In this document: positions 29,043 through 50,526 of the stretch, piece after piece
Layout of the letters: every line of letters begins with the position of its first letter
Numbering within the stretch: the first letter of the stretch is position 1
Assembly: GCF_050920415.1 (NCBI RefSeq)
Contig: NZ_CP169309.1
DNA: 64,000 nt
Direction: 5' to 3' (one strand)
Origin: Escherichia coli
GTDB lineage: Bacteria > Pseudomonadota > Gammaproteobacteria > Enterobacterales > Enterobacteriaceae
The notes under the pieces: model-generated
What the model was told of the DNA's origin: nothing
The model's input: only the letters and a program-made list of their open reading frames with translations
The model's database searches: none
Program-made: the position numbers and the translations under genes

Positions 29043-29774
29043 GTGGCTTATTACAGCATTGGTGATGTTGCTGAACGTTGCGGGATTAATCCTGTCACTC
29101 TCCGGGCTTGGCAACGCCGCTACGGTTTGTTAAAACCACAGCGCAGTGAAGGCGGACACCGACTCTTTGATGAAGAAGACATACAACGCATCGAAGAGAT
29201 CAAGCGTTGGATAAGTAATGGCGTCCCTGTAGGCAAAGTTAAAGCATTACTGGAAACCACCAGCCAGGATACGGAAGATGACTGGAGCCGCCTGCAAGAA
29301 GAGATGATGTCAATTCTTCGTATGGCTAATCCTGCCAAACTACGCGCGAGAATTATTTCACTGGGTCGAGAGTACCCGGTAGATCAATTGATTAATCATG
29401 TTTACCTTCCTGTTCGTCAGCGTCTCGTGCTTGATCACAACACCTCCCGCATTATGAGCAGTATATTTGACGGCGCATTAATTGAATACGCAGCAGCCTC
29501 ACTTTTCGAAATGCGCCGTAAGCCCGGTAAAGAAGCCATTCTAATGGCGTGGAATGTTGAAGAGAGAGCACGATTGTGGCTGGAAGCATGGCGTTTATCA
29601 TTGTCAGGATGGCATATTTCTGTCCTTGCTGATCCCATTGAATCGCCGCGCCCGGAACTGTTCCCGACGCAAACATTGATTGTCTGGACTGGCATGGCAC
29701 CAACGAGAAGGCAAAACGAACTATTACAACACTGGGGTGAGCAAGGTTATAACGTCATCTTTCATGCCCCCTAA
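29043..29774 (+). CDS. bluR: MerR-family repressor BluR (YcgE)
   Basis: 243 aa; N-terminal MerR HTH ([30 protein letters not shown]). Confidence 0.9.
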
Positions 29775-32793: not shown

Positions 32794-34269
32794 TCAAGAA
32801 CGCCAAAAAAATCCTGAAAATAGTATAATAACAGGGTAAATTTCAAGTCGACCAAGAATCATAGCAATACACATGAGATATTTTGCAATATCATTAAGAA
32901 CACCGAATGAGGATGCGGTAGCCCCAAAACCCAGCCCCATATTATTAATGCATGCAGCGACTGTCGCAAATGATGTAAGGAAATCATATCCCATACCATT
33001 TAGCACCAGTATAAAAAACACTGTAAAGAAAGTATAAAGAAAAAAGAAACTCCATACAGACCTCATTACGCGGTCTGTAACAATCTTCCCTCCTACATTT
33101 ACACTAAGCAATGCTCTGGGATGAGAAAGCTGATTTATTTCGTGTTTACTTTGTTTAAAAAGTATAAGAAATCTAAGTGATTTAATTCCGCCGCACGTTG
33201 AGCCTATACATCCCCCAAAAAAACTTGACAGCAGCAAAAAAACTATCGTATGTGTGGGCCAGTTTGAATAATCCTGCGTAGCTAAACCATTATCAGTGAG
33301 CATGGAGCTAGCAAGAAAAAACGAATGAACAACACTTCCAGTTAAGTCATACATACCTATATGCCAGACCTGGAAAGAGGTAACAATGATAACACCTGAA
33401 GCTATTAACAAAAAGAAACGAAGTTCAACATCTCTGAGTAAGGGTTTTATTGTTTTCCTGCTTATAACAACATACCAAAGAGTGAAGTTGAAAGCCGATA
33501 ACAGAGAAAAAGAGCCCGCCACCAGTTCAATCAAATAATTATTGAAATAGCCGATACTCTCACTATGAGTTGAAAAACCGCCAAGAGAAACTGTAGAAAG
33601 TCCATGACAAATAGCATCAAACAAAGGCATTCCTGCAAGTCGATAACAAACAATACAAGCAATGCCTAATAAAGAATAAGTTATCCAAAGTGTCCGCGAC
33701 GTATCAGCCAAGCGTGGAGTCAGTTTGTCATCCTTAAATGGCCCTGGCATTTCTGACTGATAAAGTTTTGCACCACCAATACCCAATAATGGCAACACAG
33801 CAACTGCCAGAACAATAACCCCTAAACCGCCTATAAAATTTAATTGTGACCGGTAGAACAAATATGCCCGAGATAATGAACTGACATCATCAATTACTGT
33901 TGCTCCTGTTGTTGTTATTCCGGAAACCCCTTCAAACAGCGCGTCAGCAAACGTTAAATTAAGCTCTGAATCAATCCATAATGGAAATGCGCTAATAATA
34001 GAAAATAAAATCCAAAACATTACAATTATAATAAACCCATCACGGGTGCGTAATTGAATGCCAGATTTTTTAGTGGTATACCACGCTCCGCCACCAATAC
34101 AAAAAAATATAACAAAAGTAATAAAAAAAACGAACAAGCTTTTTTCTTTATAAAACAATGCTACAACCATTGGTGGTAACATTGAAAGACTATAGAGCCA
34201 GACCAAGAACCCACACATATGAGTTACAACTCTTACATGAGATGTATTCATATCCAAATGTTCTTTCAA
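32794..34269 (-). CDS. TrkH/TrkG-family potassium uptake membrane protein
   Basis: 491 aa, polytopic, with repeated selectivity-filter-like GxGxxxGG segments (GGLGVIVLAV..., STCGGIKS...). Confidence 0.75.
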   Translation of the reverse strand: MKEHLDMNTSHVRVVTHMCGFLVWLYSLSMLPPMVVALFYKEKSLFVFFITFVIFFCIGGGAWYTTKKSGIQLRTRDGFIIIVMFWILFSIISAFPLWIDSELNLTFADALFEGVSGITTTGATVIDDVSSLSRAYLFYRSQLNFIGGLGVIVLAVAVLPLLGIGGAKLYQSEMPGPFKDDKLTPRLADTSRTLWITYSLLGIACIVCYRLAGMPLFDAICHGLSTVSLGGFSTHSESIGYFNNYLIELVAGSFSLLSAFNFTLWYVVISRKTIKPLLRDVELRFFLLIASGVIIVTSFQVWHIGMYDLTGSVVHSFFLASSMLTDNGLATQDYSNWPTHTIVFLLLSSFFGGCIGSTCGGIKSLRFLILFKQSKHEINQLSHPRALLSVNVGGKIVTDRVMRSVWSFFFLYTFFTVFFILVLNGMGYDFLTSFATVAACINNMGLGFGATASSFGVLNDIAKYLMCIAMILGRLEIYPVIILFSGFFWRS

Positions 34270-35204
34270 TTATAACCACCTTACTGCAATGTCATGATTA
34301 TACTGTATAAATTTTAACTCTTCTTAGATCTTACTTCACTGGTCCTTATGAAACAATCAGCAAAATGAATCTTATTATAACACTGTTCGGTTATGTATTG
34401 TTGAGCCTTCCCGCTGGGCCTGCATCATTACAAGTCGCTCCCTATGGGGCTTTGTCGAATAAATAATTTTTCGGTAAGTATCCCCCTGAGCAGGTTGTAT
34501 CTTCAGGCAGTATGAACACTTTCTGGCATACCTACCTTCGTCATTATGTTCAGCGTATGCACCATGACCAAAGCCTCTGCAACCGGCCTATCATAATCTA
34601 GCAGCATCAGAGAACCTCAGAATAACTGTTTTACCCTGTTCATTGCCGTTTCCGCTATTGAGCGACGATTGTAATCTTTTGTCCATTTTCACCGGGAATT
34701 ACCCTCGGTCAATCGCTGATACGCGACTGCACAGTTACGGTCGGCATACTCACCGGGCCAGTAACCCGCTCCTTTTTGGGGTGGGATGAGCGCGCTGATT
34801 TTCACACGGCGCAGCTGCTCGTAACAGAGCCGAGAGGCGTAAACTCCGTCTGCTGCTGTCCTGATTTTTTGATGGGTTTGCCGGATTAATCCGGCTACAC
34901 CTCTACATCCGTTACGCTGAATGCTGAGGTCGCCCTTGGGAAGAAGGCATTGCTGACTTATACCAATCCGAAATCACCTCCTCGAGCAACCAGACAGGGA
35001 GGGGCCTCGGTTGATAAGAGCTCTGTTATTGATGTGCCAGTTGGTGATTCTAACTTTTGCTTTGTAACGGGACGAGCCGTGTTGGCAGATGATGTGTGGT
35101 CTGATCCTTAAACTCAGTAAAAGTACGATTTATTCAAAAAAGCCCCTCCACTATGATTTCGATTTAAGGGGCTGATGATTATGTAACGCGAATTTACCGG
35201 ATCC

Positions 35205-36590
<1,386 letters not shown>

Positions 36591-36908
36591 TCAGGGGGGT
36601 TGATATTCCGGATCGTGCCGTGTTTGCCCACGGCTCCCCCTGGAGAGCTGCAGACCTGTTTATTTAACTCGCACAGCGCCGGGGCCTGTCAGCAAACAGG
36701 GAGCATAACCGTCGTGCCATTAAACGCCAGACGGGAGATCATTATTATTTTATTAATACAGATCCGTTGCATTCCGGTCTTTACCGCAGTTTAAAAGAAA
36801 AGAGAATAGGGACTTAGGCAGTAGAGCAGTCATTGGACAGACCACACTACCCCAAACTAGCAGGGGAGTTTTGATAAAATTTTGATAACCGTTAGCAGGC
36901 TAACAAAA

Positions 36909-36976
36909 CACAACGGGCGTGTTATACGCCCGTTACAGTTTTTAACACATGCAGAAATTACATATTCTTGATGATC
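36909..36976. repeat. icd terminator hairpin plus icd 3' end; right-hand copy of the islet-flanking direct repeat
   Basis: CAACGGGCGTGTTATACGCCCGTT hairpin just downstream of the icd stop; matches 30595..30662. Confidence 0.65.
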
Positions 36977-38208
36977 GCATCACCAAACTCTGAACATTTC
37001 AGCAGCTTAGCGCCTTCCATCAGGCGTTCGAAATCATAGGTTACGGTCTTCGCATTGATTGCGCCTTCCATACCTTTAACAATCAGATCTGCGGCTTCAG
37101 TCCAGCCCATATGGCGCAGCATCATCTCAGCGGAGAGGATGATAGAGCCTGGGTTAACTTTGTCCTGACCAGCGTACTTCGGCGCAGTACCGTGGGTGGC
37201 TTCAAACAGCGCGCATTCGTCACCGATGTTTGCGCCTGGGGCGATACCGATACCGCCAACCTGCGCTGCCAGAGCATCAGAAATGTAGTCACCGTTGAGG
37301 TTCATACAGGCGATAACGTCGTATTCAGCCGGACGCAGCAGGATCTGTTGCAGGAATGCGTCAGCAATCACGTCTTTAATGACGATCTCTTTGCCGGTGT
37401 TCGGGTTTTTGACTTTCAGCCACGGGCCGCCGTCGATCAGTTCACCGCCAAACTCTTCACGCGCCAGCTGGTAACCCCAGTCTTTAAACGCGCCTTCGGT
37501 GAACTTCATGATGTTACCTTTGTGCACCAGGGTCACAGAGTCACGGTCGTTAGCAATTGCGTATTCGATCGCGGCACGAACCAGACGTTTGGTGCCTTCT
37601 TCCGAACACGGCTTGATACCGATACCGCAATGTTCCGGGAAGCGAATTTTCTTCACGCCCATCTCTTCACGCAGGAATTTAATCACTTTCTCAGCGTCGG
37701 CAGAATCAGCTTTCCATTCGATACCCGCATAAATGTCTTCCGAGTTTTCACGGAAGATAACCATATCGGTCAGTTCAGGATGTTTAACCGGGCTTGGGGT
37801 GCCCTGATAGTAACGTACCGGACGCAGGCAGATGTAGAGATCCAGTTCCTGGCGCAGAGCTACGTTGAGAGAACGAATACCGCCGCCAACCGGAGTGGTC
37901 AGAGGGCCTTTAATGGCAACGCGATATTCACGAATCAGATCAAGGGTTTCAGCAGGCAGCCAGACGTCCTGACCATAAACCTGTGTGGATTTTTCACCGG
38001 TGTAAATTTCCATCCAGGAGATTTTACGCTCGCCTTTATAGGCTTTCTCGACTGCAGCGTCGACCACTTTCAGCATGGCTGGGGTTACATCTACACCGAT
38101 TCCATCACCTTCAATGTAAGGGATAATCGGATTTTCAGGAACGTTGAGTTTGCCGTTTTGCAGGGTGATCTTCTTGCCTTGTGCCGGAACAACTACTTTA
38201 CTTTCCAT
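36958..38208 (-). CDS. icd: Isocitrate dehydrogenase (NADP)
   Basis: 416 aa, [38 protein letters not shown]...; intact, not prophage-interrupted. Confidence 0.95.
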
Positions 38209-47735: not shown

Positions 47736-48872
47736 ATGGGACAGAGTAAAAAATTGAATAAACAACCGAGTTCGCTTTCACCGCTGGTGCAATTGGCGGG
47801 AATTCGCAAATGCTTTGATGGTAAAGAGGTCATTCCCCAGCTGGATCTGACTATCAACAATGGCGAGTTCCTCACGCTGCTTGGCCCTTCTGGCTGCGGT
47901 AAAACAACCGTTCTTCGCCTGATTGCAGGTCTGGAAACTGTTGATTCCGGACGCATCATGCTGGATAACGAGGACATCACCCACGTTCCGGCGGAAAACC
48001 GCTATGTGAACACTGTTTTCCAAAGCTACGCACTTTTCCCCCACATGACCGTGTTCGAAAATGTGGCCTTTGGGTTGCGCATGCAAAAAACCCCCGCTGC
48101 TGAAATTACGCCCCGCGTGATGGAAGCCCTGCGGATGGTGCAGCTGGAAACCTTCGCTCAACGTAAACCGCATCAGCTTTCTGGTGGTCAACAGCAACGC
48201 GTCGCCATTGCTCGCGCGGTGGTTAACAAGCCTCGTCTGTTGTTGCTGGATGAGTCGCTCTCAGCGCTGGATTACAAACTGCGCAAGCAAATGCAGAACG
48301 AGCTGAAAGCGTTACAGCGTAAGCTTGGCATTACATTCGTGTTCGTAACTCACGACCAGGAAGAAGCACTTACCATGTCGGACAGGATTGTGGTGATGCG
48401 CGATGGTCGCATTGAGCAAGACGGCACGCCGCGTGAAATCTACGAAGAGCCGAAAAACCTGTTTGTTGCTGGGTTTATCGGTGAAATCAATATGTTTAAT
48501 GCCACGGTCATCGAACGTCTCGACGAGCAGCGCGTACGCGCCAACGTTGAAGGCCGCGAGTGTAATATCTACGTTAACTTCGGCGTTGAACCGGGGCAAA
48601 AACTGCATGTTCTGCTGCGCCCGGAAGACTTACGTGTTGAAGAGATTAACGACGACAACCACGCCGAAGGGCTGATTGGTTACGTTCGCGAGCGTAATTA
48701 CAAAGGCATGACGCTGGAGTCGGTTGTTGAGCTGGAAAATGGCAAGATGGTGATGGTCAGCGAATTCTTCAATGAAGACGATCCTGACTTTGACCACTCT
48801 CTCGACCAAAAAATGGCCATTAATTGGGTAGAAAGCTGGGAGGTCGTACTGGCTGATGAAGAACACAAGTAA
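47736..48872 (+). CDS. potA: Spermidine/putrescine ABC transporter ATPase PotA
   Basis: 378 aa; Walker [10 protein letters not shown] and ABC signature LSGGQQQR. Confidence 0.95.
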
Positions 48873-49719
48873 GTTCCAGAATGTAGTGATTGTCACTATT
48901 GTCGGTTGGCTTGTGTTGTTTGTCTTTCTGCCCAACCTGATGATCATTGGCACCAGCTTTTTGACCCGCGACGACGCCAGTTTCGTCAAAATGGTCTTTA
49001 CGCTGGATAACTACACGCGTCTGCTCGATCCGCTCTATTTTGAAGTGCTATTGCACTCGCTGAATATGGCGCTGATCGCCACCCTCGCCTGCCTGGTGCT
49101 GGGCTATCCCTTTGCCTGGTTTCTGGCGAAGCTGCCACACAAGGTGCGTCCGCTGCTGCTGTTTCTGCTGATTGTTCCGTTCTGGACCAACTCATTGATT
49201 CGTATCTACGGGCTGAAAATTTTCCTCAGCACCAAAGGCTATCTCAACGAGTTTTTGCTCTGGCTGGGCGTTATCGATACACCAATTCGCATCATGTTCA
49301 CGCCCAGTGCGGTGATAATCGGTCTGGTTTACATTCTGCTGCCGTTTATGGTGATGCCGCTGTACTCCAGTATCGAAAAACTGGATAAGCCGTTGCTTGA
49401 GGCGGCGCGCGATCTCGGTGCCAGCAAGTTGCAGACCTTTATCCGCATCATTATCCCACTGACGATGCCGGGAATTATTGCCGGATGTCTGCTGGTAATG
49501 CTGCCAGCGATGGGCCTGTTCTATGTGTCCGACCTGATGGGCGGTGCGAAAAACCTGCTGATCGGTAACGTCATCAAGGTACAGTTCCTCAATATTCGTG
49601 ACTGGCCGTTTGGTGCAGCCACCAGCATTACGCTGACTATCGTAATGGGCCTGATGTTGCTGGTTTACTGGCGCGCTTCTCGTCTGCTGAATAAGAAGGT
49701 GAGCGAAATAGGTGATTAA
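48856..49719 (+). CDS. potB: Spermidine/putrescine ABC transporter permease PotB (3' end possibly re-formed at a prophage junction)
   Basis: 287-aa membrane permease overlapping the potA stop; no potC follows, phage genes do. Confidence 0.85.
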
Positions 49720-49894
49720 TCCTTTATATTCAATGAAATAAGTGCACTTTTTAATATCTTGATTGCTTAAAGCAACAATGTTGTGGGTTTCATCAAAATC
49801 AATCAGTTACGTTCTAGTTTTGGAGAATGTTTTTTTAGGCTTTTTGTTAAAGGTTGTTATGCATAGACTCAATTAATAACCCTTGCCCTGCAGC

Positions 49895-49926
49895 CTCTCC
49901 CCGACAATTCCAATTGTCGGGGAGAG
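49895..49926. other. Near-perfect 15-bp-arm palindrome between potB and the phage tfa-like gene
   Basis: CTCTCCCCGACAATT-CC-AATTGTCGGGGAGAG; no flanking T-run. Confidence 0.5.
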
Positions 49927-49953
49927 CTTCGAACGCTAGTCGCAGCTAATCTA

Positions 49954-50526
49954 TTAGCAAATGCCAAACGCTCGAATTGAAGCCAAGTCATCCAGATTAT
50001 TCAGTTGTTCCTTCATCTCCCGCTGGCGTTCGTGGATTTTAAATCCCTCCGCCACCATGGCCACCATCATGGCATCGTTCAGCGCAATAAGTTTCTCCCT
50101 GGTCAGTACGACGTTGTTATTATCCGCATCAGTCCAGAAAAAACCCTCCGGAAGCAGTCCGGCCTGTGCTGCTGCAACCACGGGGGCAAGGCGTGACTGC
50201 GAGGTTTTTCCGCCATCAAAACGACGGCCATCAAACGTGAAAATAAACTCAACGTTTTCCTGACTGTCGCGCCATGCCTCAATTTCCCGCCTTTTGGCAT
50301 CCTTTGCCGCTGCAATAAGTTCCGGCGTGACGGTGAACGGGGCGATTTCGCCCCATTTCCCGCTTTGCAGCTCCTGCCAGATGTGCTGGCCTGTCGGGGC
50401 CATATCATCCTGTATGGCAGTATACAGGGCGAACTCCGTTTCACCTTCAAATAACACCTCGCAGTCAACCGCACCATTTTCAAGATAATGTGCGTTTCTG
50501 ATACCTTTCACCGCTCTGATTTTCAT
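49954..50526 (-). CDS. Putative tail fiber assembly/chaperone-like protein (positional call)
   Basis: ORF 49954..50541 directly downstream of and overlapping the tail fiber gene; not recognisably lambda Tfa. Confidence 0.45.
   Translation of the reverse strand: MKIRAVKGIRNAHYLENGAVDCEVLFEGETEFALYTAIQDDMAPTGQHIWQELQSGKWGEIAPFTVTPELIAAAKDAKRREIEAWRDSQENVEFIFTFDGRRFDGGKTSQSRLAPVVAAAQAGLLPEGFFWTDADNNNVVLTREKLIALNDAMMVAMVAEGFKIHERQREMKEQLNNLDDLASIRAFGIC

Follow-up and report, generated by a model that had tools for sequence, protein, structure and literature searches.

The window analysed here, a 64,000-nucleotide stretch of Escherichia coli DNA (contig NZ_CP169309.1), contains a junction between the host gene potB and the tail-fibre genes of a lambda-like prophage. 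The stop codon of potB ends at 49719 and that of a minus-strand tail-fibre assembly-like gene (tfa) lies at 49954, so that the two are separated by 234 bp, as reported in a first-pass annotation. The features of the region are as follows (asterisks in peptide sequences denote stop codons).

48856..49719, plus strand: potB, spermidine/putrescine ABC transporter permease (open reading frame; PGAP annotation of the identical sequence in NZ_CP169399.1)
49688..49701, plus strand: att core TGAATAAGAAGGTG, 14 bp, crossover region (identity at three sites; one copy in the window)
49702..49719, plus strand: replacement potB 3′ end, phage, AGC GAA ATA GGT GAT TAA = SEIGD* (alignments and translations)
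49702..49930, plus strand: phage att arm on the tail-fibre side, P arm in lambda naming (aligns with the attP arm of L006 and L008 and the attR of strains 361 and GN4738)
49752..49764, minus strand: predicted IHF-consensus match AATCAAGATATTA, consensus WATCAANNNNTTR (consensus scan)
49797..49809, plus strand: predicted IHF-consensus match AATCAATCAGTTA (consensus scan; kept in all three arm types compared)
49818..49826, plus strand: candidate arm-type integrase-binding site TTTTGGAGA (sole exact TTTTGGRGA in the 64 kb; invariant across arm types)
49895..49926, no strand assigned: perfect 15-bp inverted repeat CTCTCCCCGACAATT / AATTGTCGGGGAGAG (outer edge of the conserved arm)
49954..50541, minus strand: tail-fibre assembly-like gene (tfa; DUF4376 according to PGAP), 195 aa (PHROG 1141, E = 3e-82; PGAP places the start at 50526)
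50480..52636, minus strand: stf, side tail-fibre gene, 718 aa (PHROG 2636, E = 6e-169, residues 3–677 of 718)
52695..53294, minus strand: lom, Ail/Lom outer-membrane protein, 199 aa (PHROG 108, E = 4e-106)
53362..57060, minus strand: host-specificity protein J, 1232 aa (open reading frame and annotation of a near-identical genome; intact in the window)

Alignment of potB with the unoccupied potB-potC locus of K-12, a check proposed in the first-pass annotation, reveals the 14-bp att core. Homology to K-12 stops at 49701, within potB, and the crossover therefore lies 18–32 bp upstream of 49720, where the annotation had begun its interval. Its placement of a prophage junction beside potB stands, with the junction identified as attR, but the true boundary is inside potB, at the core (49688–49701). 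The core sequence TGAATAAGAAGGTG is identical at the window junction, in attL of E. coli MFDS1022581 (NZ_CP169399.1; L001 and L002 are parts of this genome), in attL of the prophage records L004 and L005, in attB of K-12, and in three attP contigs; the copy at the int-potC junction is at L002 29328–29341. It encodes the residues (L)NKKV near the end of PotB, and AAGGTG, the Shine-Dalgarno sequence of potC, is within it.

The K-12 locus has no intergenic DNA: the core is followed by GAA CTC GAA TGA (ELE*) and the potB stop codon overlaps the potC start (ATGA). In the window, potB is host sequence up to 49701 and its final five codons and stop are from the phage, such that SEIGD* (five phage codons) stands in place of ELE* (three host codons) and potB stays open and full-length. 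The suspicion that the PotB C-terminus was phage-derived is thus borne out by the comparison of NKKV-ELE* in K-12 with NKKV-SEIGD* in the window, and by attP contigs that carry the same kind of tail (SELDD*) after the core; the PotB end is not identical to that of the prophage-free state, since unoccupied K-12 ends in ELE*. The reading frame of the interrupted potB is restored by phage DNA adjacent to the core, which is the defining property of 3′-end-replacing prophages. At least three arm types can be distinguished, each with its own PotB tail (SEIGD*, SELDD* or ATEIDN*) and all providing 5–6 codons plus a stop; in the ATEIDN* type the core is only 12 bp (TGAATAAGAAGG). The variant PotB is probably functional, because a short open tail is kept by three phage lineages and the insertion is tolerated in 30% of genomes. 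For annotation purposes, a potB allele ending in SEIGD, SELDD or ATEIDN is a marker of an occupied att site.

The 234-bp interval singled out in the first-pass annotation is the phage att arm itself, and similarity between the arm types ends just past the hairpin at its outer edge. The IHF consensus WATCAANNNNTTR has 11 matches in the 64 kb, two of which are within the arm. Three tandem copies of TTTTGGRGA are located between int and the core in a relative (L002 29249–29280), and the reconstructed attP contains four sites in 417 nt, as compared with 10 sites with up to one mismatch in the whole window, counting both strands. The att arms therefore contain both arm-type Int and IHF motifs, as sequence motifs only, to which Int and IHF are predicted to bind. 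A consensus scan of 49500–50200 for sigma-70 promoters returns a single promoter-like site, inside tfa and outside the arm, and this is no more than is found in shuffled sequences.

The inverted repeat is predicted to fold into a hairpin of about -27 to -30 kcal/mol (z = -5.3 to -6.1), whose position is kept in L006, L008, strain 361 and GN4738, i.e. in two of the three arm types. In L006 a U-G pair extends the stem on the int-sense RNA strand, although this is a hint only. There is no T-run on either side of the hairpin and a terminator scan does not flag it, and a search of Rfam gives only sub-threshold noise and no family. The hairpin may be an RNA 3′-end or processing element, and it could equally be a 3′-end element of the convergent tail-fibre operon. 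The hairpin arms were also considered as additional arm-type sites, but this was dropped as they share only a 6-mer with the motif.

The stf open reading frame overlaps that of tfa by 62 nt, and the identical sequence in MFDS1022581 is recorded as frameshifted by PGAP. The side tail fibre may be defective, given this flag and a profile match that covers residues 3–677 of the 718 in stf. No b-region genes are present between the arm and tfa in the window, in agreement with the first-pass annotation, which had noted the lack of such cargo between the tail-fibre genes and the junction; relatives at the same site do carry cargo there. L006 has two open reading frames between the arm and the tail-fibre genes, strains 361 and GN4738 have a SAM-dependent methyltransferase gene and fragments of tail-fibre genes, and in the O157-like ERL06-2503 (L009 3160–5700) the cargo consists of espK, which codes for a type III effector, and a fragment of nleB. 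In phages with the same core in two clinical isolates, from blood and urine (L010, L011 3390–4600), the SAM-dependent methyltransferase gene is located directly past the att arm and is flanked by fragments of tail-fibre assembly genes.

The window ends inside the prophage, and the far junction, int and potC were read from relatives that are 99.99% and 98.7% identical. The nearest is MFDS1022581, which is 99.99% identical over window positions 29300–54450 and 99.7% identical over 54445–64000, the sole structural difference being an IS2 element inside J that the window does not have. None of 5,426 complete genomes is identical to the window; the best match, at 99.8%, differs by the IS2 insertion. 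The MFDS1022581 prophage has the order potB / tfa-stf-lom-J-tail-head-terminase-lysis-stx2g-tRNAs-Q ... dicA/dicC-dicB-exo-xis-int / potC-potD, with 49,215 bp between its two core copies, including the 1.3-kb IS2. This layout agrees with the lambdoid prophage junction proposed in the first-pass annotation. The second nearest genome, GB089 (98.7% identical over a 15-kb query), has the same layout and an identical integrase (WP_000074979.1) but no stx; the window itself stops in the tail genes, and stx2g is on the prophage of the nearest relative. The prophage in MFDS1022581 shows some decay, with the IS2 in J (L001 25162–26390) and a tape-measure gene flagged as frameshifted (L001 31500–34077). 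The window counterparts are intact, both J (break point 54445–54450; 1232 aa) and the tape-measure gene (59463–62042; 859 aa). As these two open reading frames are intact, the window derives from a distinct, less decayed relative outside the 5,426 complete genomes.

The relative's integrase, 44.8% identical to lambda Int, combines an N-terminal lambda Arm DNA-binding domain (PF09003, 7e-21) with a tyrosine recombinase domain (PF00589, 3e-17), and xis lies upstream of its gene. A tyrosine integrase with an arm-binding domain and an excisionase are thus encoded beside att, as judged from the relative's genes. The same core is found at both prophage ends, with attL read in relatives, and once at the unoccupied site.

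The window lacks potC, as the first-pass annotation had noted: a blastn search of the 64 kb with K-12 potC and potD returns nothing for potD and, for potC, no more than a weak match to its paralogue potB. The annotation had also anticipated another prophage end with a displaced potC and a displaced potB 3′ fragment. The first of these is found in the nearest relatives, beyond the point at which the window ends within the prophage, and potC there is displaced by about 48–49 kb. The potB fragment exists in the relatives as well, but it is only 12 nt (GAACTCGAATGA, ELE*), with its last 4 nt overlapping the potC start codon, and potC is moved rather than truncated. At attL the native GAACTCGAATG comes after the core, and potC keeps its own Shine-Dalgarno sequence and start codon in both of the nearest genomes, where it is 167 bp downstream of the int stop codon and on the same strand. 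A consensus scan for sigma-70 promoters in the 520 bp upstream of potC at attL finds none. The phage base before the core at attL is an A (L002 29327–29353; also in L004 and L005), which creates an ATG and a mini-ORF, ATG AAT AAG AAG GTG GAA CTC GAA TGA (MNKKVELE*), the stop of which overlaps the potC start as the potB stop does in the unoccupied site. The mini-ORF has no evident Shine-Dalgarno sequence upstream, and it could preserve translational coupling to potC.

Two prophages with the same integrase and site differ in the cargo between Q and the lysis genes: one has stx2g with tRNA-Arg/Arg/Ile (L002 9546–11123), and the other (L012 28633–28786) has tRNA-Thr/Gly, a TerB-family gene and an iraM-like gene downstream of Q, and no stx. 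The gene content points to modular replacement of this region. At a separate location in the window (~32800–38200, corresponding to L001 3495–8909), beside icd, where K-12 carries the e14 prophage, the annotation of the near-identical genome lists a hypothetical protein, a transposase fragment and a copy of trkG; beyond them come iraM, an ariR-family gene, ycgX and bluR. On this gene content, the icd site may hold a different element or a decayed one.

Phage DNA containing both arms around an unbroken core was sought in IMG/VR using a 19-mer (int-side TTA, the core, and AG), and three contigs match (L006–L008); an exact 30-mer of the predicted attP has no match in IMG/VR, and a megablast search with the arm (49706–50000) of 50,697 phage records has none either. 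In all three contigs the int 3′ end, an attL-type int-proximal arm, the core, AGCGAATTAGATGATTAA (SELDD*) and an arm homologous to window positions 49702–49930 follow one another without interruption, and L006 extends on one side through two b-region open reading frames into tfa and stf, and on the other through int into xis and exo. In the contigs the arm is of another allele than in the window (SELDD* versus SEIGD*, with arms roughly 87% identical), so the contiguous arm-core-arm sequence joining the two prophage ends is seen in a related, non-identical allele. Because these contigs carry a homologous tail directly after the core, adjoining int, the replacement tail is evidently phage DNA. 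They come from isolate-genome assemblies and may represent tandem-prophage junctions rather than free phage DNA, although in either case the junction is P-O-P′. Two further records, ON470612 and ON470619, were rejected as attP evidence, as they were extracted as prophages together with potC, potD and further host genes and therefore contain attL only; their integrase is 99.2% identical to that of the nearest genomes.

The interval is very probably the attR junction, on the J and tail-fibre side, of a lambda-like prophage integrated by tyrosine-integrase site-specific recombination, with a phage-supplied potB end and a displaced potC. It is a textbook lambda-type attR at a published and very often occupied site, and is in this sense already known. 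We attach next to no credence to the reading in which SEIGD is an ordinary host potB allele and the prophage sits in intergenic DNA without any 3′-end replacement. PGAP does annotate the 287-aa product as plain PotB with a RefSeq WP accession, and potB has the same length in occupied genomes of all three arm types, but K-12 has no intergenic DNA at which to insert (the ATGA overlap), the similarity to K-12 gives out within potB, at 49701, contiguous attP contigs have the post-core sequence next to int, and the tail varies with the arm type (SEIGD*, SELDD* or ATEIDN*). It is also very improbable that the junction arose by deletion or illegitimate rearrangement, with potC lost along with the b region rather than displaced. 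The junction is exactly at the att core and is followed by canonical arm homology for ~230 bp to the hairpin, and potC-potD is intact beside int in both nearest genomes, even though b-region cargo that is present in relatives is not found here and the window stops short of the other prophage end. Loss of b genes between the hairpin and tfa as an event of its own is possible and compatible with integration at attR as described.

A third alternative accepts the integration but regards the prophage as defective and fixed in place, no longer capable of excision or particle formation, and the junction as a lasting part of the operon. This is a possibility of some substance, although we consider it unlikely. 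The PGAP frameshift flag on stf and its incomplete profile match (residues 3–677 of 718) are in its favour, as are the flagged tape-measure and large terminase genes of MFDS1022581 and the IS2 in its J; however, the window has J (1232 aa) and the tape measure (859 aa) as uninterrupted open reading frames, the annotation of both relatives gives int and xis as intact, and the variable presence of PP_potB in O157:H7 clade 8 suggests repeated gain or loss (PMC9997748).

Under the favoured reading of a site-specific attR, recombination between attP and attB at the 14-bp core splits potABCD. The arm that adjoins the tail-fibre genes supplies potB with five codons and a stop (SEIGD* for ELE*). On the potC side, as read in the nearest relatives, the core is regenerated ahead of potC, keeping the Shine-Dalgarno sequence and ATG but cutting potC off from the potA promoter. 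Expression of potCD would then likely come from read-through of the int/early-left operon or from a weak promoter, as no promoter is found in the 520 bp before potC. A more speculative proposal is that the att arm acts as a regulatory swap for the polyamine-uptake operon, in which the potAB mRNA would come to end, or be processed, at the hairpin, potCD, with their own ribosome-binding site, would be expressed only by read-through from prophage early-left/int transcription, and in the free phage the hairpin would act in a sib-like manner on int mRNA. We regard this as improbable; if true, roughly 30% of E. coli strains would have their spermidine uptake coupled to the state of a prophage. How the potAB-potCD split bears on polyamine uptake in lysogens is a modest question common to all occupied sites, and is not specific to this window.

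The frequency of occupancy was estimated with a 301-bp K-12 probe centred on the potB-potC junction, compared with 5,425 complete E. coli genomes. The probe is intact in 3,800 of these and split at the core in ~1,625 (30%), and where it is split it breaks at query positions 128 and 139–142, which are the core edges. The arm type of the window is present in 610 genomes (at least 80% of the junction probe). There are 11–13 matches to the potB or potB-potC probes on records classed as plasmids, and it appears that some plasmids, or records so classed, carry pot genes.

Several publications name the site. As cited in PMC8065619, potC is listed among the Stx-phage insertion sites of Steyert et al. 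2012 (PMC3491183), and the Stx2g phage of the O2:H25 strain 7V and Stx2 phages of O113:H21 are reported at this site (PMC3491183, PMC9453080). The integrases of phages at potC are reported to be of a single, highly homologous type (PMC9453080), potC is a known target in O157:H7 (PMC11052207), PP_potB is variably present in O157:H7 clade 8 (PMC9997748), and Phi-CFT073-potB is named as a prophage (PMC4632033). The main text of these papers names the site but describes neither the 14-bp core nor the replacement of the PotB tail, nor the preservation of the potC start. For a site that hosts Stx2g and other Stx phages, this core defines the limits of the prophage exactly.

The prophage described here does not differ in kind from the published prophages of the potB/potC site: the chromosomal site is the same and the nearest genome carries stx2g there. 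The shared integrase type of the published potC phages has its parallel in integrases that are identical in the two nearest genomes and 99.2% identical in the two prophage records.

The resemblance to lambda includes the gene order J-lom-stf-tfa-(b)-att-int-xis-exo with xis upstream of int, and the arrangement of the att arms, with three tandem arm-type repeats on the int-proximal side, at least one on the distal side, and IHF-consensus sites in the arm. The counterparts in lambda are P′1–P′3 on the int-proximal side and P1/P2 on the distal side. The core sequence and target are different, since the lambda core lies between gal and bio, outside genes, and the core described here is inside potB; the lambda arm-site consensus differs from TTTTGGRGA, and lambda has a large b region where the window phage has none. 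In lambda, sib/tI is a retroregulatory hairpin beyond the att arm, and the position of the stable, conserved hairpin ~200 bp past the core, away from int and in the path of int-sense transcripts, is similar, as is its separation from int after integration. The arm hairpin differs in having no T-run, and the likeness is one of position.

Phage 21 and e14 are examples of 3′-end-replacing integration, at icd, where about 50 codons are duplicated with mostly synonymous changes. In these prophages, as in Rac at TtcA, the att region likewise carries a substitute gene end, and the gene that receives it, as with potB, is open and presumably functional after integration; Rac is reported to change TtcA (PMC4632033). 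The potB/potC site departs from the icd type in that only three host codons are exchanged, for five of the phage, whose sequence does not copy that of the host. It differs also in that the core holds the ribosome-binding site of the next gene, potC, and integration therefore splits an operon and not only one gene.
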